This document shows positions 21,303 to 48,757 of a stretch of 64,000 bases of DNA, one piece after another (within the stretch, counting starts at the first letter, position 1; every line of letters starts with the position of its first letter). The DNA is from Actinomycetes bacterium. GTDB taxonomy: Bacteria > Actinomycetota > Acidimicrobiia > Acidimicrobiales > Palsa-688. The position numbers were made by a program, and so were the translations under genes. The notes below the pieces were generated by a model that saw nothing but the letters and a program-made list of their open reading frames with translations, had not been told where the DNA came from and did not search any database. The DNA lies in contig JAJYLA010000002.1 in NCBI GenBank assembly GCA_021788115.1, positions 20,476 through 84,475 on the forward strand, read 5' to 3'.

Positions 21303-21307
21303 CGATT

Positions 21308-22564: not shown

Positions 22565-22576
22565 ACGGAGACCCCG

Positions 22577-24744: not shown

Positions 24745-24746
24745 TC

Positions 24747-33188: not shown

Positions 33189-34373
33189 CTATCCGCTCAG
33201 CGCGCCCGCCGGGACGAAGGCCGTTCCGTCCATCAGCTTGCGGGCCGTGCGGCTGTACGCCGCGCGCTCGACGACGACCTCGCCGCCGGCGCCGGCGTCC
33301 ACGGCCACGTCGACCTCGATGCGGCCACTCGGGTGCCCGATCCGGACGGGGCGGTCGGAGGGCGGCACGTACGCAACGGTGCCGGGAACCCGCGCCGCCA
33401 CGGCGAGGGTCACGCCGGCCCCGCCGGGGAAGGCCTTGTGCAGCACGAGCGGCTGGCCGCCGATGACCTCCGCGACGAGGTCGACGTCGGCGGCGCCGAC
33501 CGGCTCACCGCCGGTCAGCGTCCGGTAGTCGTGCGGAGCGCCGACGAGGACGGGCACGGGAACCAGGGTTCCCTCGGCCACCCCGACGCGGCGGGCCACG
33601 AAGCGCTGGAGCCGGTCGACCCGCTCGAGCAGCGCCGCATCGGGGGCGACGGGCAGCGAGCCCTCGGCCACGCCGAGATCCGCGGCCCGGACCATCACGC
33701 ACAGGTAGGCGATGTCCACGACGGAAATCTCGACCCGGCCGACGCCGGGCACGTCGAAGGTGTCGAGCGGCGACCCGGTCGGCAGCAGGCTGCCCGTGAC
33801 CCCACCGACGGTTTCGCGCATGTCGATGAGGATCTCGGCCCCCGAACCGGGGACACCGTCGACCCGGCAGGCTCCCTGCACGCGCGCGTGGCCGCCGGCG
33901 ACGGGCACCTCCGCGTAGAGCATGCGGTCGGTGTTGACGTTGTGGATCCGCACCGTGGCGGTGCGGGCGCCGGGCGCCGCGGGAGGAACGAGTCCTCGCT
34001 CGACGGCGTAGACGCCGACCGCTGCGGAGATGTTCCCGCAGTTGATGTCGGTGTCGACACGGGCGTCCCGCACGCTCACCTGTGCGAACGTGTAGTCCAA
34101 GTCGGCGTCCGCGACGGTCGGCGGCCCGATGATGGCGACCTTGCTCGTCAGCAGGTCGGCGCCGCCCAGCCCATCGATCTGGCGGGGGTCGGGGCTGCCC
34201 ATGAGCGCGAGCAGGAACCGGTCGCGCTCGTCGGGCTTCTCGGGGACCACCGCCTCGTCGAGGAACACGCCCTTGCTCGTCCCGCCGCGCAGGATCGAGC
34301 AGGGGACGGCGACGAGCTCCCCTTCCTCGCGCCACCCGGCGCCGGCGGGAGGCGGGTCCCCCACGGCGGTCAC
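33189..34373 (-). CDS. PrpF-family isomerase (2-methylaconitate isomerase / 4-oxalomesaconate tautomerase family), 394 aa
   Basis: The sequence contains VPCSILRGGTSKGVFLD, SPDPRQIDGLGGADLLTSKVAII and INCGNISAAVG, typical of PrpF/AcnD-accessory proteins. Confidence 0.75.
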   Translation of the reverse strand: MTAVGDPPPAGAGWREEGELVAVPCSILRGGTSKGVFLDEAVVPEKPDERDRFLLALMGSPDPRQIDGLGGADLLTSKVAIIGPPTVADADLDYTFAQVSVRDARVDTDINCGNISAAVGVYAVERGLVPPAAPGARTATVRIHNVNTDRMLYAEVPVAGGHARVQGACRVDGVPGSGAEILIDMRETVGGVTGSLLPTGSPLDTFDVPGVGRVEISVVDIAYLCVMVRAADLGVAEGSLPVAPDAALLERVDRLQRFVARRVGVAEGTLVPVPVLVGAPHDYRTLTGGEPVGAADVDLVAEVIGGQPLVLHKAFPGGAGVTLAVAARVPGTVAYVPPSDRPVRIGHPSGRIEVDVAVDAGAGGEVVVERAAYSRTARKLMDGTAFVPAGALSG

Positions 34374-34377
34374 CGGA

Positions 34378-35529
34378 CTAGACCGTCAGGATGTTGACGG
34401 TGCACGCCGTGCCCTCCACGCCCTGCGCCTTGCCGCCGCGGCAGTGGGCGAGGCCCACCTTGGCGCCGGGGATCTGGCGGTCGCCGGCCTCCCCGCGGAG
34501 CTGGCGGACGACCTCCACGACCTGCGCCACACCCGTCGCTCCGAGCGGGTGGCCCTTGCCGAGCAGTCCGCCGCTGCCGTTGACCGGAAGGCGCCCGTCG
34601 AGGTCGGCTTCACCCTTCACGACCCGTGCGGGGTATTCGCCTCGGGGGAACAGGCCGAGGCCTTCGACCCGTAGCGCCTCGGCGATGCTGAAGCAGTCGT
34701 GGACCTCGGCGAAGCGGATCTCCTCGGGGCCGATCCCCGAGACGGCGTACGCCTCCTCGGCGGCGCGGTGGGTGAGGTCCTCGAAGGTCATTTCCGGGAG
34801 GCCGACCTCCTTGCGGCCGCTCTTCAGCACGGACGCAGCCAGGCGGATCGCCCGGCCGCGGCCGAGCTGGTCCCTCTTGGCCTTGCTCACCAGCACGACC
34901 GCCGAGGCGCCGTCGCTGACGGGGGCGCACTCCTGGAGGTGCAAGGGATCGGCGATCATGCGCGACGCCAGAACCTCCTCGACCGTCACCGGCTTCTTGA
35001 ACTGGGCGAGCGGGTTGAGCGCGGCGTTGCGCTTGTTCTTCGACGCGATGGCCGCCAGCTGCTCGGTCGTCGTGCCGAACTCGGCGAAGTGACGCTGGGC
35101 GCGCATGGCGTACACGGAGGGCATGGTGAGCCCGCGCTGGGCCTCTATGTCGCTCTCGTCCGGCGTGAAGGCGCCGCGGAACTGGCCGGTGAGATGCTCC
35201 ACGCCGAGGGCGATCACCACCTCGTAGACGCCGGCGCGGATGGACATCGCCGCGTCCCAGATCGCGGTCGACCCGCTGCTGCAGGCGTTCTCCACGTTGG
35301 TGATCGGTATCCCCGAGATACCTCCGTCGCCGAGGGCCCGCTGGCCCATCGCCATGCCCTGGAACACGCTGCCGACCCAGGCCGCCTCGATGTCGGCGAG
35401 AGCCACGCCGGCGTCGTCGAGCGCCTCGAGCACCGCCGCGGCGCCCAGATCGGCGGCCGTCCGGTCGGGATGTTTGCCGAAGGGGGTCATCCCCGCCCCG
35501 AGCACGTAAACGTCATCCATCGTGTTCAC
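34378..35529 (-). CDS. Thiolase-superfamily protein of the SCP-x / BbsB-like type that pairs with a DUF35 protein, 383 aa
   Basis: VYVLGAGMTPFGK and NVENACSSGSTAI (active-site Cys) are present, as are HDCFSIAE and GHPLGATG. The start may be Met4 (35520). Confidence 0.8.
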   Translation of the reverse strand: MNTMDDVYVLGAGMTPFGKHPDRTAADLGAAAVLEALDDAGVALADIEAAWVGSVFQGMAMGQRALGDGGISGIPITNVENACSSGSTAIWDAAMSIRAGVYEVVIALGVEHLTGQFRGAFTPDESDIEAQRGLTMPSVYAMRAQRHFAEFGTTTEQLAAIASKNKRNAALNPLAQFKKPVTVEEVLASRMIADPLHLQECAPVSDGASAVVLVSKAKRDQLGRGRAIRLAASVLKSGRKEVGLPEMTFEDLTHRAAEEAYAVSGIGPEEIRFAEVHDCFSIAEALRVEGLGLFPRGEYPARVVKGEADLDGRLPVNGSGGLLGKGHPLGATGVAQVVEVVRQLRGEAGDRQIPGAKVGLAHCRGGKAQGVEGTACTVNILTV

Positions 35530-35920
35530 TCCTTTCTGCGGCCGTCCGGGCGTGCGGCATGTCGATGAGCTGTCCGTCCTTCACGCGGGGCCCCGGGGCG
35601 AGCACGATGTCCACCTGCTCGCCGATGACGGGGTAGCCCTCCCCCAGCGCGGGCAGCATCACCCGCACGTTCTCGGGGAAGTCCGCGTACACGAGGTCGT
35701 AGGGCGCCTGGAAGTCGGGCGTCGACTGGTGCACCCGCGTGTAGGTGTAGACGGTCGCCGTCGGCGCCAGCAGGATCTCGTCGAGACCCCGATGCCCGCA
35801 CGCGGCGCACACGGTCCCCGTCGGGCAGAACACGGCCCCGCAGTCCGGGCAGCGCCCGGCGCGCAGGCGCACCCGGTCCTCCTCAAGGTCGTACTCGCTG
35901 TTCGCTTCAACCACGGTCAT
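35513..35920 (-). CDS. DUF35 zinc-ribbon / OB-fold protein (BbsA-like thiolase partner), 135 aa
   Basis: CPDCGAVFCPTGTVCAACG is a rubredoxin-like ribbon, followed by an OB-fold-like segment. It lies immediately upstream of, and overlaps, the thiolase gene. Confidence 0.75.
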   Translation of the reverse strand: MTVVEANSEYDLEEDRVRLRAGRCPDCGAVFCPTGTVCAACGHRGLDEILLAPTATVYTYTRVHQSTPDFQAPYDLVYADFPENVRVMLPALGEGYPVIGEQVDIVLAPGPRVKDGQLIDMPHARTAAERSEHDG

Positions 35921-35936
35921 TGTCCCTGCTCCTCTC

Positions 35937-36683
35937 TCAGGCCGCCCCGATGCTCCGCCCGCCGCACACGTAGAGCAGCTGGCCGGTGATGTACCACGAC
36001 TCGTCCGCGGCGAAGAACGCCACGGCCTCGGCGATCTCCTCCACGCCGCCGATCCTGCCGACGGGGATGGTGCTGATCAGCCGCTGCTGCACCTCTTCCT
36101 TCAGCCCCCGGAACAGCGGCGTGTCGACAAGGGCGGGGGCGACGGCGTTGGCGGTGATCTGGTACTTGGCGAACTCCAGCGCGAGCGTGCGGGTGAAGGA
36201 CACCACGCCGCCCTTGGAGGCGCTGTAGTTCGCCTGGCCGGCGCCGCCGAGCCAGGCGCGCGAGGCGATGTTGACGATCCTCCCGTACCCGGCGTCCATC
36301 ATGTGGGCGGCGGCCGCCTTGGTGCAGAGGAACTGTGACTTCAAGTTGACGTTGATCACCTGGTCCCAGTCCTCTTCCGACATGCGCACGAGCCACTTGT
36401 CGCGGGCGATGCCGGCGTTGTTGACCAGGATGTCGATCTGCCCGAACTCCTCCATTGCACGGTCGACGAGCCCTTGAGCGCCCTCCGCCACCGACACGTT
36501 CCCGGCGAAGTAGGCGACGTCGGCGCCCTGCTCGGCCAGGGCGGCGGCCGCCTTGGCGACGCGCTCCTCGTCGACGTCGTTGAGCACCACCCGCGCGCCG
36601 CCGGCGGCCAGCCGGCGGGCGATCCCCTCGCCGATGCCCTGCCCGCTCCCGGTTACGACGGCCACCCGTCCCGAAACGCCCAT
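35937..36683 (-). CDS. SDR-family 3-hydroxyacyl-CoA / 3-oxoacyl reductase (FabG-like), 248 aa
   Basis: This is the internal ATG of track ORF 35937..37121. The sequence contains VAVVTGSGQGIGEGIA, NNAGIARD and YSASKGGVVSFTRTLALE. Confidence 0.8.
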   Translation of the reverse strand: MGVSGRVAVVTGSGQGIGEGIARRLAAGGARVVLNDVDEERVAKAAAALAEQGADVAYFAGNVSVAEGAQGLVDRAMEEFGQIDILVNNAGIARDKWLVRMSEEDWDQVINVNLKSQFLCTKAAAAHMMDAGYGRIVNIASRAWLGGAGQANYSASKGGVVSFTRTLALEFAKYQITANAVAPALVDTPLFRGLKEEVQQRLISTIPVGRIGGVEEIAEAVAFFAADESWYITGQLLYVCGGRSIGAA

Positions 36684-36691
36684 CTGCTCCG

Positions 36692-37474
36692 TCACCTTCC
36701 TTCGAAGCGGGGTTGCCGCTTCTCCACGAACGCCCGCATGCCCTCTTCCCTGTCCTTCGTGCCGCGCAGGAACGCGTGGCACTGGGCCTCGAAGTCGAGG
36801 CCGGTCTGGAGGTCGCTGCTGAGCGCCACCTGCACCGACCGCTTTATACACCCAATCGACAGCGGCGCCCTCCCGGCGATCTGGCGCGCGAGGCGCTCGG
36901 CCTCCGCGACGGCCTCGCCTGCCGGCACCACCGCGTTGACGAGCCCGATCCGCAGCGCCTCCTCCGCGTCGATGCGGTCCGGCAGCAGCATGAGCGCCAG
37001 GGCGGAGCCCGGGCCCACGAGGCGGGTGAGGCGCTGGGTGCCCCCCGCGCCCGGCATGCTGCCGACCGTCGCCTCGGGCAGGCCGAAGCGCGCCGTGGTG
37101 TCGGCGACGCGCAGGTCGCACGCGAGCGCGAGCTCGAGGCCGCCGCCCAGAACGTAGCCGGCCAGGGCGGCGACGACGGGCTTCGACATCCTCTCGATGA
37201 AGGAGAACAGCCCCCGGATGATGTCCCCGAGGGGGTCCCTGCCGCCGCCGGTGTCGTACTCGGCGACCCGGCCCTTGATGTCCGCGCCGACGGAGAAGGC
37301 GCGGGCCTGCCCGGCCAGGACGACCGCCCGGCAGGTCCCGTCCGCGTCGAGCTCGCCCAGGTGGTCCCGGAGCCCCATCAGCATCTCCGGCGTCATCGCG
37401 TTGAGCGCCGACTCGCGGTTGATGGTGACGCGGGCGATCTGGTCGAGGCGCTCGACGACGATCAGCTCGTCCAT
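36692..37474 (-). CDS. Enoyl-CoA hydratase/isomerase family protein, 260 aa
   Basis: This is the internal ATG of track ORF 36692..38314. The sequence contains [50 protein letters not shown] and [14 protein letters not shown]. Confidence 0.8.
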
Positions 37475-38706
37475 GTGCTCGTGCTCCTCTCTCCGGCCGC
37501 GGCCGGTTCCGGCGTCAATTGCACGACCACCCCGGAGTCGAGGAGGTCGCCGATGCTCGCGTCGGAGTAGCCCCCGTCGCGCAGGATCTCGATGCTGTGC
37601 TCCCCCGGCAGCGGGGCCGGGCGTCCCGGCACGGCCGGCGTCGCCGACAGCCTCGCCGGTACCGCCACCCCCGGGACCGGTCCGACCACGGGGTGGTGCA
37701 GCTCGAGCAGGCGCCCGGGCGCGACATCCTCGAGCCGGCGTGCCAGCGACGCGTAGTCGTTTATCTCGGCGCAGAGGATGTCGGCCTCGCCGAGCGCGGC
37801 CAGCCAGTGGGCCGTGGGAAGCGCCCGGAAGCGCGGCGACAGCTCGGCGCGCAGCTCGGCCCGGTTGGCGACCCGGTCGGCGCCGGAGGCGAAACGGGGG
37901 TCGTCGGCGAGCTCGGGGCAGCCGAGCACCGCGACCAGCGCCCGCCACCGGTCGGGCCAGTAGGCGGCGACCATCACGTAGCCGTCCGCCGTCGGGAAGG
38001 CCTCGTTGGGGGCGGCGTAGGGGGCGGCGCTGCCATGCCGGCCGGGCGACGCGCCGCTGGCGAGGAACATCGACAGCGGCACCGTCTGGAACATGAGCAT
38101 CGCGTCCAGCAGGGACACGTCGACGCGCTGGCCTCGTCCGGTGCGCTGGCGGCCGAGGAGGGCGAGGAGCACCCCCTGCACGGCGGCCATGGCGCCCATC
38201 GTGTCCGCTGCAGGCACCCCGACCTTCACGGGGCTGCCGTCCGGCTCGCCGGTGACGCTCATGATCCCGCTCGTCGCCTGGACGATGCCGTCCACGCCGG
38301 GCTTGTCGCGCCATGGCCCGTCCTGCCCGAACGCGCTGATCGAGCAGTACACCAGGCCCGGGTCGTCGGCCGACAGGACGTCGTAGCCGAGCCCCGCCCG
38401 GTCGAGGACGCCGGGGCGGAAGCTCTCGAGCAGCACGTCACAGCCGCGGGCCAGCTGCCGGAGGACGTCGGCACCACCGGGCCGCTTCAAGTCGACGACC
38501 ACCGACCGCTTGTTGCGGTTCATGCCGAAATAGGCGGCCGCCTGGCCCCCCACGAACGGGGGCCCCAGGTTGCGGCCCCACTCCCCGCCAGGGGGGTCCA
38601 CCTTGATGACCTCGGCGCCGTAGTCGCCGAGCACCATCCCGGCGATGGGGCCCGCCGCCCCCTGGGAGAGGTCGAGGACGCGCGTCCCTTCAAGCACTGA
38701 CGGCAT
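37462..38706 (-). CDS. Family III (CaiB/BaiF) CoA-transferase, 414 aa
   Basis: This is the internal ATG of track ORF 37462..38778. The N-terminus is [45 protein letters not shown]. Confidence 0.85.
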
Positions 38707-39295
38707 GCCCGACCAAGCTCCCGTCGAACACCGATCCGTGGGCGGCCGCCATGTCCCATCCCCGCCGCACCGCGGCACGGTTGACCGGGCGGAACGCCTC
38801 GGGCGACCGCTTGGCCACCGCTTCTTCGATGGCGTCGCGGGAGAACCTGCCCGAGACGCACGCGAAAGCGCCGACGCCGATCATGTTCGCGACGACCTTC
38901 GCCCGCAGTTCCGTGCGGGCCGCCGCCTCGAACGGCAGCGCCAGGATCCCCGCCACGCCCGGCTCGACCCGGACGAGGTCGGCGTCGACCAGGGCGGTGC
39001 ACCGGCCCTCGGCGAGCGCCGCCATCACGGCGGGCCGGGTCCGGGCGAACTTGTGCCACGCCTTGTCGTGCAGCGCCAGAAGGATGTCGGGAATGCCGCA
39101 CTGCGGGTTGGCGATCGGCTCGTCCGAGAGGACGACGTCGGCGCGGCTCGCTCCTCCCCGCGCCTCGGGTCCGTACTCCTGGGTGAGCGCGACCGCGTAC
39201 CCCGACGCCAGGCCGGCCTCTGCGACGACCACGGCGGCGAGGGCCAGGCCCTGACCGCCGGCGCCGGCGAAACGCGAGTCGACCCGCCAGGTCAT
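38690..39295 (-). CDS. 2-oxoacid:ferredoxin oxidoreductase gamma subunit, 201 aa
   Basis: This is the internal ATG of track ORF 38690..40180. FAGAGGQGLALAAVVVAEAGLASGYAV..QEYGPEARGGASRADVVLS is typical of the Por/Kor gamma subunit. ATGA overlap with the beta subunit. Confidence 0.8.
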   Translation of the reverse strand: MTWRVDSRFAGAGGQGLALAAVVVAEAGLASGYAVALTQEYGPEARGGASRADVVLSDEPIANPQCGIPDILLALHDKAWHKFARTRPAVMAALAEGRCTALVDADLVRVEPGVAGILALPFEAAARTELRAKVVANMIGVGAFACVSGRFSRDAIEEAVAKRSPEAFRPVNRAAVRRGWDMAAAHGSVFDGSLVGHAVSA

Positions 39296-40128
39296 CGCGC
39301 ACCCCCGACGAGGCCCATCGCCTCTTCCAGGGTGCTCCGCCGGCTGCGGTGGAGAACGCCCGTCGCCAGCGTAGGCCGGGTCCGCTTCTCGGGCACCGGC
39401 CGCAGGGTGGGGCGCGTCGCGAGGTCGGCGTCGACCGCCGGCTCCTCCCGGCCCTGGGCGAAGAGGAGGTCGGCGCCGGTGCCCAGGTGGTTGGTGCGGC
39501 CGAAGTACTCGGTGCAGTCGGTCAGCACCTCGACGAAGGAGAACCCGGGGTGGTCGAGCGCCTCTGCGAAGACCTCTTCGAACAGCCTGGTCCGGAAGCT
39601 CTGCGCCCGCGCCACAAACGTCGCACCGGCCGCCTCCACGAGCCGCGCGGCATCGAAAGGCTCTTCGTGGTTCCCCTCCGGCGACGTGGAGGTGAACGCG
39701 CCCGGCACGGTGGTCGGCGCCAGCTGCCCGCCGGTCATGCCGTAGATCTCGTTGTTGAAGAGCACGCACGTGAGATCGATGTTGCGCCGGGCGGCATGGA
39801 TCAGGTGATTGCCGCCGATGGAGAGGCCGTCCCCGTCGCCGGTGACGACGATCACCTTCAGATCGGGCCGGGCGAGCTTGAGGCCGGTCGCGAACGTGAG
39901 CGGCCGGCCGTGGGTCGTGTGCATGGTGGCGGAGTCGACGTAGCCGACGACGCGGCTCGAGCAGCCGATCCCGGCCACGAACGCGACGCCGTCGAGGGTT
40001 TCGTAGCGACGGGCGAGCACGCGAAGCATCGCGTCGAAGACGATGCCGTGCCCGCAGCCGGGGCAGAGCATGTGCGGCATCATGTCGAGGCGAAGCAGCC
40101 GCTTCTCGGTGGGGGCGGCTTCGATCAT
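39292..40128 (-). CDS. 2-oxoacid:ferredoxin oxidoreductase beta (TPP-binding) subunit, 278 aa
   Basis: LCPGCGHG is present. VVTGDGDGLSIGGNHLIHAARRN is the TPP GDG-X-GGN motif. ATGA overlap with the alpha subunit. Confidence 0.85.
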   Translation of the reverse strand: MIEAAPTEKRLLRLDMMPHMLCPGCGHGIVFDAMLRVLARRYETLDGVAFVAGIGCSSRVVGYVDSATMHTTHGRPLTFATGLKLARPDLKVIVVTGDGDGLSIGGNHLIHAARRNIDLTCVLFNNEIYGMTGGQLAPTTVPGAFTSTSPEGNHEEPFDAARLVEAAGATFVARAQSFRTRLFEEVFAEALDHPGFSFVEVLTDCTEYFGRTNHLGTGADLLFAQGREEPAVDADLATRPTLRPVPEKRTRPTLATGVLHRSRRSTLEEAMGLVGGAR

Positions 40129-41273
40129 GCGAGCACCCCCTCGCGCGTCGCGGCGAGCACGTGCTCGACCAGCTCCTCAACGGAGATGATGCTCCCGCCG
40201 GCCTTCAGGTAGGGCGCCAGGGGCACCTGCCGGCCCGCCACCCTCTCCACCTCCAGCGACCACTGCCCACGGTTCATCTCCGCGGCCACCACCAGCTCCG
40301 CCGGGGCGATCGCCTCCTCGAGGGCGGCGACGGGGACCGGCCACAGCAGCCGCGGGCGCAGCAGGCCCGCCGGGATGCCGCGTTCGCGGAGCACGTCGAC
40401 GGCGGCGCGCGCCATGCGGGCGGTTATGCCGTACGCGATCAGCACGACCGTCGCGTCCTCGAGCCGGTAGCGCTCCGGGGGCAGCGCGTCGAGCGCCGCG
40501 TCGGTCTTCCTCTCGAGCCGTTCGAGGAGCGCAGCGACCGTGGCGGGATCCGACGTGGGGTAGCCCCGCTCGTCGTGCATGAGACCGGTCACGTGGAAGC
40601 GGTAGCCGCGCCCGAAGTCGGGGACCATGGCCACCCCTTCCGCGTTGGGGCGGTACGCGGAGCGGAACGACGGCCCCGGCGGCTCGCCCGGCACCGGGCG
40701 CCCAGCCGAGCCGGCCGGGGGGGCGGCCAGGGTGACGCCTTCGCGCATGTGGCCGATCACCTCGTCGAAGAGCACCACGACCGGGGTGCGCAGCCGCTCC
40801 GCGAGCGCGAAGGCGGTGCCCGTCAGGTCGTGGACCTCCTGCACGCTCGCCGGGGCGACCACCACCGTCGCCCGGTCGCCGTGCGACCCCCAGCGGGCCT
40901 GCATCACGTCGCCCTGGGAGGGGGACGTGGGCAGCCCGGTGCTCGGGCCCCCCCTCATGACGTCCACCACGACGCAGGGAATCTCCGCCAGGGACGCGTA
41001 CCCGAGGTGCTCCTGCATCAGCGTGAAACCCGGCCCGGACGTCGCGGTCATCGCCCGCGCCCCGCCCATGGCGGCGCCGAGCACGGCGCCGAGCGACGCC
41101 ATCTCGTCTTCCATCTGGATGAACACCCCGCCCCGCCGGGGAAGCGCCCGCGCCAGCGCCTCGGCGATCTCCGACGAGGGCGAGATCGGGTACCCGGCGA
41201 AGAACCGGCACCCCGCAGCGAGCGCCCCCAGGGCGCAAGCCTCGTTACCTTGGACCAGCTGCAGCGTGGACAT
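40125..41273 (-). CDS. 2-oxoacid:ferredoxin oxidoreductase alpha subunit, 382 aa
   Basis: This is the internal ATG of track ORF 40125..41762. The N-terminus is MSTLQLVQGNEACALGALAAGCRFFAGYPISPSSEIAE, and ATSGPGFTLMQE is also present. Confidence 0.85.
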   Translation of the reverse strand: MSTLQLVQGNEACALGALAAGCRFFAGYPISPSSEIAEALARALPRRGGVFIQMEDEMASLGAVLGAAMGGARAMTATSGPGFTLMQEHLGYASLAEIPCVVVDVMRGGPSTGLPTSPSQGDVMQARWGSHGDRATVVVAPASVQEVHDLTGTAFALAERLRTPVVVLFDEVIGHMREGVTLAAPPAGSAGRPVPGEPPGPSFRSAYRPNAEGVAMVPDFGRGYRFHVTGLMHDERGYPTSDPATVAALLERLERKTDAALDALPPERYRLEDATVVLIAYGITARMARAAVDVLRERGIPAGLLRPRLLWPVPVAALEEAIAPAELVVAAEMNRGQWSLEVERVAGRQVPLAPYLKAGGSIISVEELVEHVLAATREGVLA

Positions 41274-42093
41274 GTTCCTCCTGGGCCTGATATGAGACGT
41301 CGATGGCGAGGTCCGGGCACAGCCACGAGCACAGCTGGCAGCCGGTGCAGCGCTCTGGGTGGGCGAAGACGGCGACGTCGAAGCGGTCCAGCTCGAGGCA
41401 GCGCTCCGGGCAGACAGCGACGCAGATGTTGCACCCCTTGCACCATGCCGCCTCGATGCTGACCAGGGCCGGCGGGCGGGCGACGACGGGGGCCTGCCGC
41501 AGTCGGGTGGGGGACGCCGGCTTGTGCGCCCTGCCGCGCTCGAACGCGGTGATGTTCTCCTCGACGGTCTTCGGCGGAACCCACGAGCGGATCGCCGTGT
41601 GCCACGCCTCAGCCGGGAAGGGCAGCCGCGCGGCCACGGCGCCGAGGAGCACGGTCTGGGCCACCGCGGCTCTCGTGGCGGCAGCGTCGCCCGCCACGGC
41701 AGCGGTGTCGATCGCCACGACCCCCCTCGGGGACGCGTCCGCGGCCGGATAGGCGAGGGCACCGCCCCGGTGGTCGCTCATGGACGCGGGGGGGAGCCGC
41801 CGCTCGGTGCTGACGAAGGCGACACCCTCGTCGGCGAGGTAGGGCAGGGCCCGCAGGCCCTCCTCCCACTCGAAGGCGACGACCCAGTCGGCCGTTCCCG
41901 GCTCGACGGTCACCGAGTGGACGTCGTGGCCGAACCGCACATGGCTGACGACGGTCCCGCCCCTCTGGGACATGCCGTGGACCTCGGACTTCTTCACGTC
42001 GAACCCGGCGTCGAGCAGCACCTGGGCGATGACGTTGCTCGCCATGATCACGCCCTGGCCGCCGACACCCGCGACGACGATGTTGCCCGACAC
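41245..42093 (-). CDS. Indolepyruvate:ferredoxin oxidoreductase beta subunit (IorB-like) fused in frame to a 2x[4Fe-4S] ferredoxin (OFOR delta-like) domain, about 282 aa
   Basis: The frame of track ORF 41245..42519 has no stop between the IorB-like part (VSGNIVVAGVGGQGVIMASNVIAQVLLDAGFDVKKSEVHGMSQRGG...) and the C-terminal CKGCNICVAVCP...CTGCQLCSWLCP. I prefer the GTG at 42093 because AAGAGG lies 8 nt upstream. The GTG at 42141 overlaps the iorA stop. Confidence 0.7.
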   Translation of the reverse strand: MSGNIVVAGVGGQGVIMASNVIAQVLLDAGFDVKKSEVHGMSQRGGTVVSHVRFGHDVHSVTVEPGTADWVVAFEWEEGLRALPYLADEGVAFVSTERRLPPASMSDHRGGALAYPAADASPRGVVAIDTAAVAGDAAATRAAVAQTVLLGAVAARLPFPAEAWHTAIRSWVPPKTVEENITAFERGRAHKPASPTRLRQAPVVARPPALVSIEAAWCKGCNICVAVCPERCLELDRFDVAVFAHPERCTGCQLCSWLCPDLAIDVSYQAQEEHVHAAAGPR

Positions 42094-42137
42094 AGGAGAC
42101 GCCTCTTTCTCGCTGGTCGGCTCGGCCGTCCTGGCGC

Positions 42138-43949
42138 TCACAGCGCGCCTCCGGCGGCCGCCGCGGGGACTTCCTCGTGGACCGACACGATGGCGCGGTT
42201 CGGGCAGAGCTGGGCGCAGACGGTGCATCCGGAGCACAGCGATGCGTCGATGCGCACCCGGGGAGGCGACACGCCGGCGTCCGTATCCCACGCGATGGCC
42301 GGACAGCCGAGCCCCATGCACGCCTGGCAGCCGTCGCACAGCTCCGCGCGGACCGTGTAGACGGGTCCGCGGCTCTTGACCGGGGCTTCGACGCACGCCC
42401 GGGTGGTCACCACGACCGAAACCCCGCGCCGTCCCGTCGCCTCCCGGATGGCCCTGCGGGTGGCGGCGAGGTCGTAGGGGTCGACGACCGTCACGGAGTG
42501 CACGCCGGCGGCCCGGCACAGCTCGACGATGTCGGCACGCGGTAGCGTCTCCCCGCGGATCCCGACCGACACGCCGGGGTGGGGCTGCCCGCCGGTCATG
42601 GCGGTGATGCCGTTGTCGAGCACGACGACGGTGACGTCCGCTTGGCGGTGCACGGCGTCGATCAACGCGGGCACCCCGGCGTGGAGGAACGTCGAGTCGC
42701 CGATGGTGGCGACCACGGGCTGGCCCGGCACGCCGGCGAGCGACAGGCCTACCGCCATCCCGATGCTCGATCCCATGGCCAGGCAGGTGTCCATCGCCGC
42801 GATCGGCGGCCCCGCGGCGAGCGTGTAGCAGCCGATGTCGCCGGCCACGACGGCGTCGAGCTCACGCAAGGCGAGGAAGGGCGTCGAGTGGGGGCAGCCC
42901 GGGCACAGCACGGGTGGGCGTGGGCCTGCGGCGGGAGCCGGCCGGGCGGCCGCCGGCGGGCGCTGGTCCAGGAGGCCGGCCTTCTCGAAACCCTTGCGGA
43001 CCTCTTCGGGCGAGAGCTCCCCGTCCCGGGGGAACCATTTCTTGCCTTCGACGGCGATGCCGAGCCTGCGGACCTCGTCCTCGAGGTAGGGCTCGAGCTC
43101 TTCGACGACGATCAGCCTTTGCACCTGGGCGGCGAAGCGGCGGATCAGGTCCTCAGGCAGGGGGAACGCGACGCCGAGCTTGAGCACGCTCGCCTCGGGC
43201 AGCACTTCGCGCACGTTGTGGTAGGCGATGCCGGAGGTGATGACGCCGACGTCGCGCGAGCGGATCTCCTGCGCGTTGAGAGGGCTGTGCTCCGCCCACT
43301 CGCGCATCCTCTCCAGGCGTTCGATGTGCACGGCGTGGCGTCTGCGGGCGAACGCCGGCAGCATGACGTACTTGCTCGGGTTGCGCTCGAAGCCGGACGC
43401 CGCAGGGCGCTCGAGTCGGTCTCCCGCCTCGAGCGAGGAGCGGGCGTGGGAAGTCCGTGTCGTGGTGCGCAGCATGCAGGGCAGGTCCCACTCCTCGCTC
43501 ACGTCGAACGCGGCGCGGACGAAGTCGTAGGCCTCCTGGCTGTCCGCCGGCTCGAACACCGGGATGCCGGCGAATCGGCCGACGTAACGGTTGTCCTGCT
43601 CGTTTTGCGAACTGTGCATCCCGGGGTCGTCGGCGCTCATCACGACGAGGCCGCCCCTGACCCCGAGGAAGGCGCTCGTCATGAGGCTGTCCATCGCCAC
43701 GTTGACCCCGACGTGCTTCATCGTGACCAGGACACGCGCTCCCGCGAGGGCGGCGCCCACGGCGACGTCGAGGGCCACCTTCTCGTTGGTCGCCCACTCC
43801 ACGTCCACGTCGCCCGCCGGCGAGATGCGCGCCAGGTACTCGAGAACCTCGGTGCTCGGCGTACCCGGGTAGCCGGTCGCCACCGAAATGCCGGCGTGGT
43901 AGGCGCCGAGGGCGATCGCCTCGTTCCCCGACAGCAGCGTCGAGCTCAC
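42138..43949 (-). CDS. iorA: Indolepyruvate (arylpyruvate):ferredoxin oxidoreductase alpha subunit, 603 aa
   Basis: The sequence contains LLSGNEAIALGAYHAGISVATGYPGTPSTE, LCPGCPH, IGDSTFLHAG and a C-terminal CDGCQACMGLGCP...CSGCTVCAQLCP. The GTG start overlaps the upstream stop (GTGA). Confidence 0.8.
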   Translation of the reverse strand: MSSTLLSGNEAIALGAYHAGISVATGYPGTPSTEVLEYLARISPAGDVDVEWATNEKVALDVAVGAALAGARVLVTMKHVGVNVAMDSLMTSAFLGVRGGLVVMSADDPGMHSSQNEQDNRYVGRFAGIPVFEPADSQEAYDFVRAAFDVSEEWDLPCMLRTTTRTSHARSSLEAGDRLERPAASGFERNPSKYVMLPAFARRRHAVHIERLERMREWAEHSPLNAQEIRSRDVGVITSGIAYHNVREVLPEASVLKLGVAFPLPEDLIRRFAAQVQRLIVVEELEPYLEDEVRRLGIAVEGKKWFPRDGELSPEEVRKGFEKAGLLDQRPPAAARPAPAAGPRPPVLCPGCPHSTPFLALRELDAVVAGDIGCYTLAAGPPIAAMDTCLAMGSSIGMAVGLSLAGVPGQPVVATIGDSTFLHAGVPALIDAVHRQADVTVVVLDNGITAMTGGQPHPGVSVGIRGETLPRADIVELCRAAGVHSVTVVDPYDLAATRRAIREATGRRGVSVVVTTRACVEAPVKSRGPVYTVRAELCDGCQACMGLGCPAIAWDTDAGVSPPRVRIDASLCSGCTVCAQLCPNRAIVSVHEEVPAAAAGGAL

Positions 43950-45238
43950 CGGGGCACCAGGGTGGAGCTGGCCGGGTGGGCGGCGGCCTCGAGGGCCTCG
44001 ATGATGTGGGTGGCTTCCTCGTCGGCGAGCACGTGGCTGGTGTGCTTCGCCGCTTCGAGGATGGCCTCCGTCCGCTCGGGCGTCGGGTCGAACCCGTGCT
44101 CGCGCAGCCAGAACAGCACGTTCGACTTACCGCTCATCGGTCCGACCGAGATGTGCTGGCGCCTCCCGACCAGGGACGCGGGAACCGCGCTGTACACCCG
44201 GTCCGCGAGCCACGCGTCACCCTTGGTGTAGGCCTTGGCGACCGCTGCGGCGTGCACGCCGGTGCTGGTGGCGAAGGCGTCCTCGCCGAGGACGGGGTAG
44301 TTGTTCGGGACGGCGACGCCGGTCATCTCGCTCGCCACCCTGCAGTACTCGGGGAGCCGGGTCAGATCCACCTGCTTCCAGCCGAGAAGGGCGACGTTGA
44401 CCAGGACGAGGTCGAGCGCTGTGTTGCCGACGCGCTCGCCGATGCCGAGGGCGCAGCCGTGCACCCGGGTCGCACCCGCAGAGAGGGCGGCGAGCGCGTT
44501 GACGACGTCGAGGCCCCGGTCGCGATGGCCGTGCCAGTCGATGGCCGTTCCGTCGAAGCCGTGGCTGGACAGCTGCTCGGCGAGGAAATGCACGATGCGT
44601 TGCACCCCGCCGGGGGTCGCCTGGCCCACCGTGTCGGAGATGCAGAACCGGCTGGCCCCGGCGTTCGCGGCGGCCAGGTAGAGAGCCTCGATGTCCTCGC
44701 CGCGGGCCCTCGTGGTGTCCTCGGTCACGAACATCACATCCATGCCGGCCTTCACGGCGTAGCCGACCGCTTCCTCGGTGATCCGCACCAGGGTCGGGAT
44801 ATCCCAGCCCTCCACCCACTGGCGGATCGGGCTCGACCCGATGAACAGCGCCGCCTGTATGGCCACGCCGGATCGCTCCTGAGCCTCACGGATCGGGTCG
44901 ATGTCGTGGACGTGGGTGCGGCCGGCACAGTTCGGCTCGATCGGGAGGTGTTCGTCGGCGATGGTCTTGGCCAAGGTGACGACGTCGTCGAGGAGACCCT
45001 CGCTCGCGCCGGCGTAGCCGATGTCCGCGCACGTCACCCCGACGGGCACCAGGGATCGAAGGAAGACCTGCTTCTGCTCGACCGTCGGCTGCAGCACCGA
45101 TGGGCCCTGAAGCCCGTCCCGGAGCGTTTCGTCGTTGAGGATGATCTCCGCGGGCGGGTCGAGCGTGCAGCTGCGCGGCGCCAGTTCGTTCCAGTCGAAG
45201 ATGAGATCGGCGATGTCCGGATCTCCCGTGTTGTCCAC
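43946..45238 (-). CDS. 2-isopropylmalate synthase / homocitrate synthase family (DRE-TIM metallolyase) protein, about 430 aa
   Basis: LNDETLRDGLQ and WHGHRDRGLDVVNALAALSAGATRVHGCALGIGERVGN are HxH metal-site motifs. I placed the start at the GTG at 45238 because GGGAGGAA lies about 6 nt upstream. The track's Met at 45286 adds 16 Arg-rich residues. Confidence 0.75.
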   Translation of the reverse strand: MDNTGDPDIADLIFDWNELAPRSCTLDPPAEIILNDETLRDGLQGPSVLQPTVEQKQVFLRSLVPVGVTCADIGYAGASEGLLDDVVTLAKTIADEHLPIEPNCAGRTHVHDIDPIREAQERSGVAIQAALFIGSSPIRQWVEGWDIPTLVRITEEAVGYAVKAGMDVMFVTEDTTRARGEDIEALYLAAANAGASRFCISDTVGQATPGGVQRIVHFLAEQLSSHGFDGTAIDWHGHRDRGLDVVNALAALSAGATRVHGCALGIGERVGNTALDLVLVNVALLGWKQVDLTRLPEYCRVASEMTGVAVPNNYPVLGEDAFATSTGVHAAAVAKAYTKGDAWLADRVYSAVPASLVGRRQHISVGPMSGKSNVLFWLREHGFDPTPERTEAILEAAKHTSHVLADEEATHIIEALEAAAHPASSTLVPR

Positions 45239-45287
45239 CCCAGGTTCCTCCCTCTGCCGGCGCGCCGCTCGCGTCGTGCACGCCATC

Positions 45288-45309
45288 TCACTGTGATGCA
45301 GTGACTATA
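45288..45309 (-). promoter_or_regulatory. Candidate -10 element (TATAGT on the minus strand) fused to the palindrome TCACTG-N5-CAGTGA, upstream of the synthase/OFOR operon
   Basis: Plus-strand tcactg lies at 45288-45293 and cagtga at 45299-45304. Minus-strand TATAGT is plus-strand 45304-45309. This sits in the only AT-rich gap (45239-45362) of the 17-kb co-directional block. No good -35 was seen. Confidence 0.3.
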
Positions 45310-45362
45310 CGTAGACCACTGAACTTTTTATTACGTGAGAGAGTTTAGGTTAGACTGCCCGG

Positions 45363-45923
45363 TCAGTCAAGGTCTTGGGCAGGGTTTCCCTCGGCCTCTG
45401 CCAGGGCGGCGAGCAGCGGCTCGATGCCCCCGTGGCGGAGCACGTCGAGCATCGGCTCGGGGATCCGGTCGGCCTCGAGCTCGCGCCGGACCGACCCTTC
45501 GGACCCCTGCTGTTCGACGGTCACGACGCCGGCGACGATGTAGACGTCGACCACGTCGCCGTCGGCCACCGCGGCGCTGACGCCCGGGCAGCTGAGGGCA
45601 GGCAAGCCGATGGCGATCGCGTTGCGGGCGAAGATCCGGGCGAGCGAGTCGGCCACCACCGCAGCGACACCGAGGTCCTTGAGGTGCTGGGGGGCGGACT
45701 CCCGGCTCGAGCCGCACCCGAAGTTCGGTCCCGCGACGACGATGTCGCCGGCGCGAACCTGACCGGCGAACTCGGGGCGGGCCGACTCGAGCACGTGGCG
45801 CAGCCGCACCTCGGGCGGGTCGTGGACGTACTGTCCCGGCGAGAGCATGTCGGTGCTGATGTCCGCGCCGAACAGCCATGCCCGGCCCGCGAGACGGGCG
45901 ACGTCACCGCTGGGATTGCTCAC
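45363..45923 (-). CDS. Aconitase-family small subunit (LeuD / homoaconitase small-subunit-like), 186 aa
   Basis: GPNFGCGSSRESAP is the LeuD signature. The GTG start overlaps the large-subunit stop (GTGA). Confidence 0.8.
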   Translation of the reverse strand: MSNPSGDVARLAGRAWLFGADISTDMLSPGQYVHDPPEVRLRHVLESARPEFAGQVRAGDIVVAGPNFGCGSSRESAPQHLKDLGVAAVVADSLARIFARNAIAIGLPALSCPGVSAAVADGDVVDVYIVAGVVTVEQQGSEGSVRRELEADRIPEPMLDVLRHGGIEPLLAALAEAEGNPAQDLD

Positions 45924-47197
45924 CGCACGTCCTCCTCTTTCCCCGCCTCCTCCTCGTCGGCCGCGGCGAAGCTACGGGGATCGGTGATCTCACCGGCCAG
46001 CGCGGAGGCGGCGGCCGTCGCCGGCGAGCCCAGGTAGATCTCGGCCTCGGGGCTTCCCATGCGACCCCGGAAGTTCCGGTTGTGCGTGCCGAGGCAGCGC
46101 TCGCCGGGCGCCAGCAGCCCCATGTGGCCGCCGAAGCACGGGCCGCAGCCCGGTCCCTCAACGATCGCCCCCGCCTCCACGAGATCGGAGAGGATCCCCT
46201 CTGCGAGCGCCTGGCGGTACACCTCCGACGACGCCGGGGTGACCACCATCCTCACGCCGGACGCGATCCGTCGCCCGCGCATGATCCGGGCGGCCTGGCG
46301 GAGGTCCTCGAGGCGCCCGTTGGTGCAGGAGCCGAGAAACACCTGGTCGAGGCGCACGCCGGCGACTTCGTCGACCCCGACGACGTTCTCGACGTGGTGG
46401 GGTACGGCCACCTGGGGCGCGAGGGACCCCAGGTCGACGGTGTGGGTCGCCGCGTACGACGCCCCGGGGCGCATGGTGTCGACGTCGCCCGCCGGGAACA
46501 GCGAGAACTTCGCCCCCATCTCGACGCCCATGTTGGCGACCGTCATTCGCTCGGGCAAGCCGAGGGTCGCCACACCGGGGCCGCCGTGCTCGACGGAGCG
46601 GTACTGCGCCTCGGCGGAGCCCACCTCGCGCATCAGGTAAAGGACGAGATCCTTCGCCGTCACCATCGGCTGCAGCCGGCCCTCCAGCACGACCAGCACC
46701 GTCTCGGGGACCTTGAACCACAGGCGCCCGGTGGCCAGCGCATACGCCATCTCGGAGCTGCCGATCCCGCAACCGGCAGCCCCGAGCGCCCCGTAGGTGG
46801 TGCTGTGGGAGTCCGTCCCCACGACGAGGTCCCCGGGCCGGAAGCGGCCCTCCTCCACCATCACCTGGTGGCAGATTCCCCGGCCGACTTCGAAGAACGC
46901 CTCGATGCCGTAGCGCTTCACGAGGCGCCTGGCCGCCGCCTGGTGCTCGGCCGCGGCGACCGAGGGGGCGGGAACCATGTGGTCGAACACCACCGACGCC
47001 CGGCTCGGGTCGTGGAGCCGGCGGACCCCGACACGCTGGAGCATTCCGAGCACGTCGGCGGCGAAGATGTCGTGCATCATCATGGCGTCGACCTCCGCCA
47101 CGACGTATTCGCCGGGGACCACGCGCGGCACGCCGGCAGCCCGCGCGAGGACCGACTCCGCCGCCGTCATCGGCGCGTCCGCGATGGGCCCGCCCAT
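45920..47197 (-). CDS. Aconitase-family large subunit (LeuC / homoaconitase large-subunit-like), 425 aa
   Basis: The sequence contains GTDSHSTTYGALGA, FLGSCTNGRLEDL and GCGPCFG, which supply the three Cys ligands of the dehydratase [4Fe-4S] cluster. The start may be Met10 (47170). Confidence 0.8.
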   Translation of the reverse strand: MGGPIADAPMTAAESVLARAAGVPRVVPGEYVVAEVDAMMMHDIFAADVLGMLQRVGVRRLHDPSRASVVFDHMVPAPSVAAAEHQAAARRLVKRYGIEAFFEVGRGICHQVMVEEGRFRPGDLVVGTDSHSTTYGALGAAGCGIGSSEMAYALATGRLWFKVPETVLVVLEGRLQPMVTAKDLVLYLMREVGSAEAQYRSVEHGGPGVATLGLPERMTVANMGVEMGAKFSLFPAGDVDTMRPGASYAATHTVDLGSLAPQVAVPHHVENVVGVDEVAGVRLDQVFLGSCTNGRLEDLRQAARIMRGRRIASGVRMVVTPASSEVYRQALAEGILSDLVEAGAIVEGPGCGPCFGGHMGLLAPGERCLGTHNRNFRGRMGSPEAEIYLGSPATAAASALAGEITDPRSFAAADEEEAGKEEDVR

Positions 47198-47198: not shown

Positions 47199-47963
47199 TC
47201 AGAGCATGCTCAGGCCACCGTTGACGCTCAACGTCTGGCCCGTGATGTAGTCGGCGTGGGAAGAGGCGAAGAACAGGACGGCCTGGGCGACCTCCTCGGG
47301 GGTCCCGACCCGGCCGAACGGGATCGAGCGGATGATCGCCGACATCAGCCGCTCGTGGCCCTCGCTCACGTCGGCGAGCATCGCCGTGTCGGTCAGGCCC
47401 GGGGCGACACAGTTGACGTTGATGCCCTGGCGCGCGGTCTCGCGGGCGAGCCCCTTGGCGAAGGCGATCACGCCGCCCTTGGCGCCCGAGTAGACGACCT
47501 CGCCGCTCGATCCGACCCGCCCGGCGTCGGAGGCGACGAAGACGAGCTTGCCCGCGCCCCTTTCGATCATGTGGGGCAGCACGGCGTGCGCGCAGGCGAG
47601 GTGGCCGCGCAGGTTGACGGCGATCACCCTGTCCCACAGTGTCTCGTCCGTCTCGATGAACGGCATGACCTTGTCCCACCCGGCGTTCGAGACGAGCACG
47701 TCGATGCCGCCGAAGTGCCCGAGGGCCGCTTCCACCATGGCGCGCACCGCGGCGGTGTCGGCGACGTCGACCTCGACCGGAAGCGCGTTCCCGCCCGCCG
47801 ACGCGATCTCCTCGGCCACCGTTTTCGCCCGGTCAGCCGACAGATCCCCGATCACCACCCCGCCGCCCTCCTGGGCGATGCCGAGGGCCACGGCGCGGCC
47901 GATCCCGCTGCCGGCGCCCGTGACGACCGCCGTCCTGCCGCCGAACCTGCCGTCACCTGTCAT
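47199..47963 (-). CDS. SDR-family dehydrogenase, second BadH-like paralogue, 254 aa
   Basis: The sequence contains VVTGAGSGIGRAVA, SNAGWDKVMPF, ASDAGRVGSSGEVVYSGAKGGVIAFAKGLARETARQGINVNCVAPGLTDTAML and GQTLSVNGGLSM. Confidence 0.7.
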   Translation of the reverse strand: MTGDGRFGGRTAVVTGAGSGIGRAVALGIAQEGGGVVIGDLSADRAKTVAEEIASAGGNALPVEVDVADTAAVRAMVEAALGHFGGIDVLVSNAGWDKVMPFIETDETLWDRVIAVNLRGHLACAHAVLPHMIERGAGKLVFVASDAGRVGSSGEVVYSGAKGGVIAFAKGLARETARQGINVNCVAPGLTDTAMLADVSEGHERLMSAIIRSIPFGRVGTPEEVAQAVLFFASSHADYITGQTLSVNGGLSML

Positions 47964-47965
47964 TC

Positions 47966-48757
47966 CTACCGTCCTTTCAGCACACCGTTTGAGTCGAGTT
48001 CACGCACGATAGCCAGCTGGTCCGGGGTCGGGGCCACCGTGGTGGGCACCGGGTCACGCACGATCAGGTCGAAGCCGGTGGCGTCGCGAACCTCTTCCAC
48101 GGTCACACCCGGGTGCACCGACACCAGGCGCATCCGCAGGCTATCGGGGTCGAAGTCCATCGTGGCGAGGGACGTCACCACCAGTGCGGGTCCCCCGCCG
48201 GCCAACCCGGCCGCCGACCACTCCTCGGGCCCGCCGAGGAACCCGGGGCCGCCGAGGAAGTCCACCCGCTCCACGAATGTCCGCCGGTTGTGCGACATCG
48301 AGTAGATGAGCACCCGTCCCACACGCGAGAGGAACGGCAATCCCACCGTCCCGGGGCCGCGAAGGCTCGGGCGGGACCAGTCCCCCACCGAGACGAGGTT
48401 GCAGTTCCCGTGGGCGTCGATCTGGAGACCGCCGGCAAAGAAGACGCTGAACACGTCGGCACGGCCCTCCATCAGCACCACATCACCAAGGGGCAGCGCG
48501 GTGTCCGCACGCAGAAGGTCGTAGTCGCAGCACGAAGGAACCACGGGATCGAGGTGGGGGTTCACCGAGGAGGTCCCGCCGGCGACGTACCACAGGCCGG
48601 GCGCGGTGGTGAGCTGGGCGAGCCGGCAGGCCACCTGGGGCAGAGCGCTGGCGGTGCCCATCACCGCGACATCGTCGTCGCGAAGACGCGCGGCCAGCTC
48701 TACCGCCATCAGCTCGCCCACCGACCAGTTGCCGGCGGCGCCGTCACCCGCCGTCAC
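47966..48757 (-). CDS. Class I CoA-transferase subunit B (glutaconate CoA-transferase GctB-like), 263 aa
   Basis: This is the C-terminal part of track ORF 47966..49879. The GTG at 48757 overlaps the subunit A stop (GTGA). The sequence contains ELMAVELAARLRDDDVAVMGTASALPQVA and FFAGGLQIDAHGNCNLV. Confidence 0.7.
   Translation of the reverse strand: MTAGDGAAGNWSVGELMAVELAARLRDDDVAVMGTASALPQVACRLAQLTTAPGLWYVAGGTSSVNPHLDPVVPSCCDYDLLRADTALPLGDVVLMEGRADVFSVFFAGGLQIDAHGNCNLVSVGDWSRPSLRGPGTVGLPFLSRVGRVLIYSMSHNRRTFVERVDFLGGPGFLGGPEEWSAAGLAGGGPALVVTSLATMDFDPDSLRMRLVSVHPGVTVEEVRDATGFDLIVRDPVPTTVAPTPDQLAIVRELDSNGVLKGR

Follow-up and report, generated by a model that had tools for sequence, protein, structure and literature searches.

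Few enzymes can fix CO2 onto an acyl-CoA. The 2-oxoacid:ferredoxin oxidoreductases (OFORs) belong to these few, but the reaction requires electrons of very low potential. In the delta-containing class, the alpha subunit comprises domains I and II only and gamma is a separate protein, whereas OFORs devoid of delta have a fused III-I-II subunit (PMC5020499). In the Helicobacter pylori enzyme OorDABC, the delta subunit holds the medial and distal clusters and sits at the OorB/OorC interface, with the proximal cluster being bound by Cys19, Cys22, Cys53 and Cys202 of OorB (PMC12307629). In the oxalate oxidoreductase of Moorella thermoacetica (MtOOR), domains III-V on one polypeptide are a normal subunit, designated c (PMC5020499). 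We have analyzed a locus that differs from all of these in its gene arrangement, found in a 64,000-nucleotide stretch of contig JAJYLA010000002.1 from an Actinomycetes bacterium (hereafter, the window). There, the gene of an indolepyruvate-type OFOR (IOR) alpha subunit, iorA, is followed by an iorB gene that continues in frame into a 2x[4Fe-4S] ferredoxin domain (iorB::Fd), and then by the alpha, beta and gamma genes of a second OFOR (OFOR2).

The fusion and the conservation of this five-gene module suggested an uncharacterized twin enzyme. Our overall explanation, to which we give a probability of about 0.4, is that the five genes encode two enzymes that would be tethered to each other and would feed a benzylmalate route to benzoyl-CoA.

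The IorB-ferredoxin fusion

Genes were called by their third-position GC content (GC3), the window having a G+C content of about 71%. The fusion gene is part of a long minus-strand operon, most genes of which overlap their neighbors by 4-29 nt (operon coordinates are given below in the direction of reading, all on the minus strand). The iorA gene (43949..42138) encodes a protein of 603 aa and is followed by iorB::Fd (42141..41245, with an alternative start at 42093). From the IorB-type domain through the ferredoxin there is no stop codon, the single uninterrupted frame ending at 41245. The first candidate start, GTG 42141, forms a GTGA overlap with the iorA stop and gives a protein of 298 aa; the second, GTG 42093, is preceded by GAAAGAGG and gives 282 aa. 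Upstream of the gene, the GC3 of this frame was about 0.6, and it exceeded 0.87 only after 42141. An earlier note on this stretch, whose author saw only the letters and their open reading frames (ORFs), had listed an ORF at 41245..42519. Its frame was correct, but the GC3 profile indicated that its 5' extension is spurious and non-coding.

The encoded protein starts with an IorB-type domain III (residues ~20-204, 42084..41530; Pfam POR, PF01558, at residues 27-204). This is followed by a Pro/Ala-rich linker of ~20 aa (residues ~205-225, 41529..41467; HKPASPTRLRQAPVVARPPALV) and by a delta-type 2x[4Fe-4S] ferredoxin domain matched by Pfam Fer4 families (residues ~226-285, 41466..41287). The latter carries two CxxCxxCxxxCP motifs, CKGCNICVAVCP (nt 41407-41442) and CTGCQLCSWLCP (nt 41314-41349). 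When 24 homologues were aligned, WCKGCxICVxVCPE and CTGCxLCxxLCPD were invariant in this domain, and the distance between the invariant G203 and W233 ranged from 29 to 66 aa, the linker being thus variable in length. The AlphaFold2 (AF2) model of the monomer had a mean pLDDT (predicted local distance difference test) score of 82, which dropped below 50 at linker residues 214-218. The individual domains were well modeled, with their relative orientation being uninformative.

The fusion is real, as supported by the continuous frame, by two independent assemblies that span the junction and by the recurrence of the same architecture in databases. In-frame GC3 was 0.87-1.00 in every 30-codon block of the gene, linker included. 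The Logan assembly of SRR13170411 was 100% identical over 41994-40054 and read through the junction without stop or frameshift. A contig from ERZ27236914 (ENA) was 99.94% identical and also had the junction intact, its single nucleotide polymorphism replacing a Val by an Ala in the linker. Among the 5.8 billion proteins searched, fusion-like architectures made up at least 120 clusters (90% identity clustering) that were 43-67% identical to the window protein. Nearly all of these combined POR with Fer4, and the annotation of the clusters did not go beyond "IorB" or "2-oxoacid:acceptor oxidoreductase family protein." The earlier note had reported that the IorB frame runs into a two-cluster ferredoxin without a stop, and had proposed both a re-inspection of the junction and a database search for the same domain fusion; the frame, the assemblies and the homologues bore this out.

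We found no description of this fusion, or of the pathway proposed below, in the literature. Hence, the earlier remark that no characterized IorB-ferredoxin fusion is known stood, although the protein is less unprecedented than this would imply, III-V fusions being known and IorB::Fd being common in databases.

Two OFORs in a conserved five-gene module

The IorA protein scored 696 bits on the TIGR03336 IOR_alpha model (cut-off, 651 bits), which identifies it as an IorA equivalog. Its Pfam domains POR_N, TPP_enzyme_C and Fer4 correspond to the pyrimidine and pyrophosphate domains for thiamine pyrophosphate (TPP) and to a C-terminal 2x[4Fe-4S] domain V. The Cys motifs of this domain are kept in the clade of fused loci (18-sequence alignment, in which limits of the high-scoring segment pairs cut a few sequences short within or ahead of the second motif). 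The N-terminal domain of the fusion had IorB models as its top 12 NCBIfam matches (best, 185 bits, below the equivalog cut-off of 237), gamma-subunit models scoring 40 bits at most, and it was 40-47% identical to the IorB of unfused iorAB loci. In neighbor-joining trees, IorA and the IorB domain of the fused loci each formed one clean clade, which argues for a single origin followed by retention.

The pair thus resembles ordinary IorAB in the IorA equivalog, in the retained iorA-iorB order, in the IorB-type N-terminal domain and in having a PaaK-like ligase as neighbor, as do most unfused loci. It differs in that IorB, ~190-200 aa when it stands alone, here reaches 298 aa through the additional C-terminal 2x[4Fe-4S] domain, in that IorA and IorB belong to a separate clade, and in that a second OFOR always accompanies them.

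The alpha gene of OFOR2 (41273..40125; domains I and II) starts at ATG 41273 after AGGAGG and overlaps the fusion gene by 29 nt. It is followed, through ATGA overlaps at 40128/40125 and 39295/39292, by the genes of beta (40128..39292; domain VI, the site of TPP and of the proximal [4Fe-4S] cluster) and gamma (39295..38690; domain III of the Kor/Oor type), these junctions being as the earlier note had described them. Alpha (Pfam POR_N plus PFOR_II) scored 487 bits on NF006412 (cut-off, 411) and 362 bits on OorA-type alpha models (cut-off, 579), and matched PDB entries 1yd7 (330 bits) and 8ys5_A, the H. pylori OorA (275 bits). The best NCBIfam match of beta was the 2-oxoglutarate ferredoxin oxidoreductase beta model NF007207 (249 bits; cut-off, 364), and its Cys22, Cys25, Cys56 and Cys205 correspond to the four OorB cluster ligands. 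Gamma scored 110 bits on NF006323, 42 bits on OorC and 34 bits at most on IorB models. With separate alpha (I-II), beta (VI, with the cluster cysteines) and gamma (III) subunits, OFOR2 falls in the Oor/Kor class, and its homology suggests a possible specificity for 2-oxoglutarate.

Pfam detected no Fer4 domain in OFOR2 alpha, beta (TPP_enzyme_C) or gamma (POR). Since IorA has its own domain V and these three subunits have none, we have assigned the ferredoxin domain of the fusion to OFOR2, of which it probably constitutes the delta subunit. OorD, PorD_KorD and OGOR_delta (36-38 bits) were among its strongest ferredoxin-only NCBIfam matches, and its best PDB sequence match was 8ys5_D, the H. 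pylori OorD (1e-8). The domain lies where, as already pointed out for this locus, a four-subunit OFOR would encode its delta, and the alpha-beta-gamma set encoded downstream has no other domain V at its disposal. The delta-alpha-beta-gamma order, the subunit sizes, the alpha match, the OorD match and the proximal-cluster cysteines of beta are all shared with OorDABC/KorDABG (8ys5). However, the delta-type domain upstream of alpha is not free-standing here, being the C terminus of a subunit of another enzyme to which it is fused in frame, and beta and gamma score under the equivalog cut-offs.

The conservation of this arrangement was studied in 85 loci, gathered from four context look-ups and a scan of GTDB species genomes, onto which the window proteins were mapped by tblastn. 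Eighteen loci had the fusion (L001-L018, of which 17 are distinct, L002 duplicating L001) and 67 had an unfused iorAB. Among the loci listed, the alpha, beta and gamma genes were directly downstream in all 17 distinct fused loci and in none of the 67 unfused ones (Fisher p = 3.9e-18). No unfused iorAB-delta-alpha-beta-gamma intermediate was present among the 85. In 62 of the 67 unfused loci iorA was closely upstream of iorB, with the other five having no IorA match in the stored flank. Only a few fused clusters appeared among ~2300 IorB-like representatives (50% identity clustering); the fused clade is compact.

Carriers of the fused module were found in Acidimicrobiia, Microthrix, Gaiellales, Thermaerobacter, Dormibacterota, Rokubacteria, SAR324 and Gammaproteobacteria. 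Three phototrophs available in culture, Blastochloris sulfoviridis DSM 729, Rhodopseudomonas telluris KCTC 23279 and Afifella pfennigii, carry it as well. Most of the unfused loci listed came from Clostridia, with Treponema, Desulfobulbaceae and some other phyla also represented. In one SAR324 metagenome-assembled genome (MAG; L018, 13641-20785), the genes directly after the fused module encode an IorA and an IorB of the ordinary type (37% and 31% identity, respectively) and a Mo-hydroxylase, so that fused and unfused IOR types coexist at one locus.

In the minimal context, the module was accompanied by a PaaK-like ligase and, in some cases, by an ABC transporter, for example in Afifella, R. 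telluris and a Dormibacterota MAG. In the large context, the gene content was identical to that of the window operon (L001, L004, L005, L014 and L016; partially in L012, whose contig ends inside). This large cluster, with genes resembling those of isopropylmalate synthase (IPMS), LeuCD, PrpF and Bbs enzymes, accompanies the module in Actinomycetota and Thermaerobacter. A molybdenum enzyme resembling 4-hydroxybenzoyl-CoA reductase (Hcr) adjoins the module cluster in L001, L004, L005, L014 and L016, and 9 of 18 fused loci, a count that includes the window, have a PaaK-like ligase gene no more than 10 kb away. In the related loci with gene listings, no genes resembling those of benzoyl-CoA reductase (BCR; bcr genes) were annotated; the module is not tied to bcr genes.

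A proposed tethered pair and its putative pathway

The fusion and the second OFOR are inherited strictly together, of which the most parsimonious reading is that the enzymes are physically linked, as the earlier note had proposed, and we lean towards such a coupling of the two OFORs. The N-terminal domain would stay the IorB partner of IorA and the C-terminal ferredoxin would serve OFOR2. The linker, ~20-60 residues long, would tether both TPP enzymes as a single assembly, with six [4Fe-4S] clusters chained between the two TPP sites. The novelty is that of a III-V fusion bridging two different OFORs in a conserved five-gene unit, the parts themselves (IOR, Oor/Kor-type OFOR and III-V fusion) being known.

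In the mechanism that we favor, OFOR2 would oxidatively decarboxylate 2-oxoglutarate, or possibly pyruvate, and its electrons would go directly to the IOR half. The PaaK-like ligase would make arylacetyl-CoA, which IOR would reductively carboxylate to arylpyruvate, making a free low-potential ferredoxin pool unnecessary. The reductive direction of IOR is favored because an oxidative enzyme would compete with the translationally coupled synthase described below for arylpyruvate. Still, the coupling of OFOR2 to a reductive carboxylation is put forward tentatively. A supply of low-potential electrons by OFOR2 would fit the finding that several lineages with the fused module do not count among the classical strict anaerobes. 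The fusion, its conservation, its co-occurrence with OFOR2 and the domain assignments are established, whereas we infer that a supercomplex forms, which way its electrons flow, what its substrates are and that benzylmalate is an intermediate. In Methanococcus maripaludis, IOR is documented to work in reverse with aryl acids, which are thereby used to make aromatic amino acids (work cited in PMC4162585).

The remaining genes of the operon were identified by gene calls and by domain and profile matches. The gene preceding iorA (45286..43946, 4-nt overlap) encodes an acetyl-CoA:2-oxoacid condensing enzyme of the HMGL type, resembling IPMS and homocitrate synthase. Met and Val replace Arg133 and Ser135 of Thermus thermophilus homocitrate synthase, and the pocket is hydrophobic. 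As these two residues bind the distal carboxylate of 2-oxoglutarate, their absence leads us to expect a hydrophobic 2-oxoacid as substrate. A homocitrate synthase/2-oxoadipate theme for the HMGL-like and LeuCD-like proteins was disfavored, the distal-carboxylate Arg133 being Met here. IPMS homologues using phenylpyruvate exist, as exemplified by HphA (PMC12961565), a benzylmalate synthase that the IPMS-like enzyme resembles in view of its hydrophobic pocket. The mapping of the residue equivalent to Ala73 of HphA was abandoned, as the alignments to 6ktq, 3rmj and 2ztj conflict around that site. The IPMS-like enzyme would condense arylpyruvate with acetyl-CoA to benzylmalate.

LeuC-like (47197..45920) and LeuD-like (45923..45363) proteins, which passed the subfamily cut-offs, would dehydrate benzylmalate to benzylmaleate, and a PrpF-like protein (34373..33189), resembling double-bond isomerases, would isomerize the latter to phenylitaconate. 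Activation to phenylitaconyl-CoA would be due to a family III CoA-transferase (38706..37462), closest to the succinyl-CoA:dicarboxylate type (SUGCT, 271 bits; BbsEF, 132-140 bits). An enoyl-CoA hydratase (37474..36692) and a short-chain dehydrogenase/reductase (SDR; 36695..35937), the best PDB match of which was BbsD (245 bits), would then yield aroyl-succinyl-CoA. The thiolase (35529..34378), with BbsB as best PDB match (275 bits) and a BbsA-like DUF35 protein encoded beside it (35920..35513), would cleave this product to (4-hydroxy)benzoyl-CoA and succinyl-CoA. Finally, (4-hydroxy)benzoyl-CoA would feed the Hcr-like and Bcr-like enzymes, the genes of which lie in other parts of the window. 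The large cluster would thereby cover the whole sequence from arylpyruvate to aroyl-CoA, with no enzyme missing and none left over.

The described Bbs system (BbsAB, BbsCD, BbsEF and BbsH) resembles the operon in that BbsB, BbsD and BbsA rank first or nearly first among the solved matches of the thiolase, the SDR and the DUF35 protein, respectively. It differs in that the operon has neither a glycyl-radical benzylsuccinate synthase nor a BbsG-type dehydrogenase, and in that entry here would occur via benzylmalate, not benzylsuccinate. Literature searches returned nothing relevant on benzylmalate with IOR, on benzylmalate with benzoyl-CoA, or on bbs with isopropylmalate. Taken as a unit, the operon (33189-47197, minus strand), present also in L001, L004, L005, L012, L014 and L016, reads as an undescribed route from arylpyruvate to benzoyl-CoA. 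Directly upstream of the LeuCD-like genes (47199-49686, minus strand) lie genes of a BadH-like SDR (290 bits; cut-off, 431) and of a two-subunit family I (Gct-like) CoA-transferase.

Taken to its full extent, this proposal amounts to a hard-wired redox transcarboxylase working without free ferredoxin, together with an anaerobic arylacetate route that bypasses the Mo-dependent alpha-oxidation by PadBCD/PadEFGHI, a combination that we still regard as rather doubtful. If true, it would represent a new principle, in which a carboxylation is driven without a ferredoxin pool by the oxidative half-reaction of another OFOR. It would also explain the use of IOR-type enzymes by organisms other than strict anaerobes, and could serve as an engineering template. 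The conserved operon hints at an unrecognized route by which arylacetates or aromatic amino acids would be converted anaerobically to benzoyl-CoA; to our knowledge, phenylacetate degradation by anaerobes devoid of PadBCD is still unsettled. The three cultured carriers put the module within experimental reach. Even under a conservative reading, the locus has a distinct, uncharacterized OFOR architecture that is annotated only generically.

Alternative readings and other aromatic genes

Several observations weigh against a tethered pair feeding a benzylmalate route. There is no solved IOR structure in the PDB, and so no template from which to judge whether the IorB C terminus would extend as far as the OFOR2 delta site. 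Domain V of canonical OFORs lies beside domain III of its own protomer, and the top Foldseek match of the fusion model was the III-V subunit of MtOOR (5c4i_E, E = 2e-12), which makes an intra-enzyme arrangement structurally natural. The full ferredoxin domain retained by IorA could simply contact soluble ferredoxin. The NCBIfam scores of the IorB domain, beta and gamma are all under the equivalog cut-offs, and the Bbs similarities just modestly exceed generic thiolase and SDR scores. Lastly, a class I BCR-like enzyme is encoded in the window, and its need for a donor of low potential accords with an oxidative, electron-supplying role of the module.

Such an oxidative role, the first of the two put forward in the earlier note, is the alternative that survives best, even if we find it unlikely. 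IOR would convert arylpyruvate to arylacetyl-CoA and OFOR2 would convert 2-oxoglutarate to succinyl-CoA. The electrons would pass to soluble ferredoxin or to the class I BCR, and the fusion would merely secure stoichiometric co-assembly or co-localization. The window does contain BcrCBAD-like, Oah-like and Hcr-like genes, and OFOR2 is Oor/Kor-like, analogous to the 2-oxoglutarate:ferredoxin oxidoreductase (KGOR) by which the BCR ferredoxin of Thauera is reduced. In addition, no free ferredoxin gene occurs within the 64 kb, in line with what the earlier note had seen next to the bcr genes. However, these bcr genes are ~17 kb off and on the opposite strand, and in the related loci listed, where none was annotated, the module has the IPMS/Bbs-like cluster, a PaaK-like ligase or an ABC transporter beside it. 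An oxidative IOR and the translationally coupled IPMS-like enzyme would draw on one and the same 2-oxoacid, and the AMP-forming ligase feeds the acyl-CoA side of the IOR reaction. A tethered ferredoxin is also unable to shuttle among enzymes. The suggestion that the fusion replaces the ferredoxin missing beside the bcr genes is weakened for this reason, as the tethered domain cannot diffuse to another enzyme, and it finds no counterpart in the related loci listed.

Considerably less room is left for an arrangement like that of MtOOR, which we consider improbable. The fused protein would give domains III and V to the alpha and beta subunits of OFOR2, and the trailing gamma would pair with IorA or be spare. 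This reading draws on the III-V chain as top Foldseek match, on the composition of the MtOOR c subunit and on gamma-delta-alpha-beta being the canonical domain and gene order of pyruvate:ferredoxin oxidoreductase (PFOR) and Por. It also agrees with the contact between delta and gamma in OorDABC (PMC12307629). Against it, the N-terminal domain is an IorB orthologue, as judged from its 185 bits versus 40 at most on gamma models and its 40-47% identity to unfused IorB, and the trailing gamma is of the Kor/Oor type (110 bits versus 34 at most on IorB models). The iorA-iorB adjacency is the rule in unfused loci (62 of 67), and iorA overlaps the fusion gene here. Moreover, both domain III proteins would have to swap partners, whereas for bridging it suffices that an ancestral iorAB-oorDABC array lost a single stop codon. 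The disordered linker of variable length and the poor global superposition of the fusion model on MtOOR (TM score 0.40, root mean square deviation 14 A) point in the same direction. The oxalate-type enzyme has three subunits and the additional gamma is found in all 17 distinct loci listed; OFOR2 scored 41 and 36 bits on the oxalate oxidoreductase alpha and beta models. The locus thus shares with MtOOR and with single-chain PFOR a domain III followed by domain V on a single polypeptide. There, both domains serve one protomer; here, domain III is IorB-type, gamma is separate and two TPP enzymes are encoded. We therefore hold the MtOOR-like arrangement to be less likely than a bridge between two OFORs.

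An aromatic funnel, as suggested in the earlier note, is very improbable. In this scheme IOR would yield arylacetyl-CoA and OFOR2 would be a phenylglyoxylate:acceptor oxidoreductase yielding benzoyl-CoA. The known enzyme of this kind, PadEFGHI, is an OFOR of five subunits that takes part in the anaerobic degradation of phenylacetate in Azoarcus evansii. The five polypeptides, the aromatic setting with PaaK-like, Hcr-like and Bcr-like genes and the extra ferredoxin-like component are reminiscent of it. Yet there is no orthology to the Pad models, since OFOR2 alpha, beta and gamma scored 79, 32 and 35 bits on PadG, PadI and PadE, far under the respective cut-offs of 700, 700 and 300 bits, and on these scores we have rejected OFOR2 as PadEFGHI. 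Two TPP-binding catalytic units are encoded here, compared with one in PadEFGHI. Neither the cluster nor the related loci listed showed a gene of a PadBCD-type phenylacetyl-CoA:acceptor oxidoreductase, and the conserved IPMS-like, LeuCD-like, PrpF-like and Bbs-like genes would be left unexplained.

An assembly or annotation artefact, with a missed stop or frameshift separating iorB from a delta gene, has only the generic caveat of an apparently metagenome-assembled contig in its favor and was rejected as practically negligible, given the GC3 continuity, the two concordant assemblies and the recurrence of the fusion across many phyla, with at least 120 clusters and 17 distinct loci having it.

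Other genes of the window are also related to aromatic compounds. At 20095-25559, an Oah-like hydrolase gene (minus strand) is accompanied by a four-gene set of the class I BCR-like BcrC/B/A/D type (plus strand). These genes score well under the NCBIfam equivalog cut-offs, suggestive of a divergent BCR in an actinobacterial genome, and there is no ferredoxin gene nearby. A three-subunit Mo-hydroxylase (14588-18472, plus strand) is closest to Hcr, with its alpha subunit scoring 891 bits (cut-off, 995). Beside it lie a second PaaK-like ligase gene (12170-13531, minus strand) and an IclR-like gene; in related genomes, the Mo enzyme directly adjoins the twin-OFOR cluster. Lastly, two family III CoA-transferase genes followed by that of a UbiD-like decarboxylase (862-4935, minus strand) resemble the anaerobic phthalate module of succinyl-CoA:phthalate CoA-transferase and phthaloyl-CoA decarboxylase.

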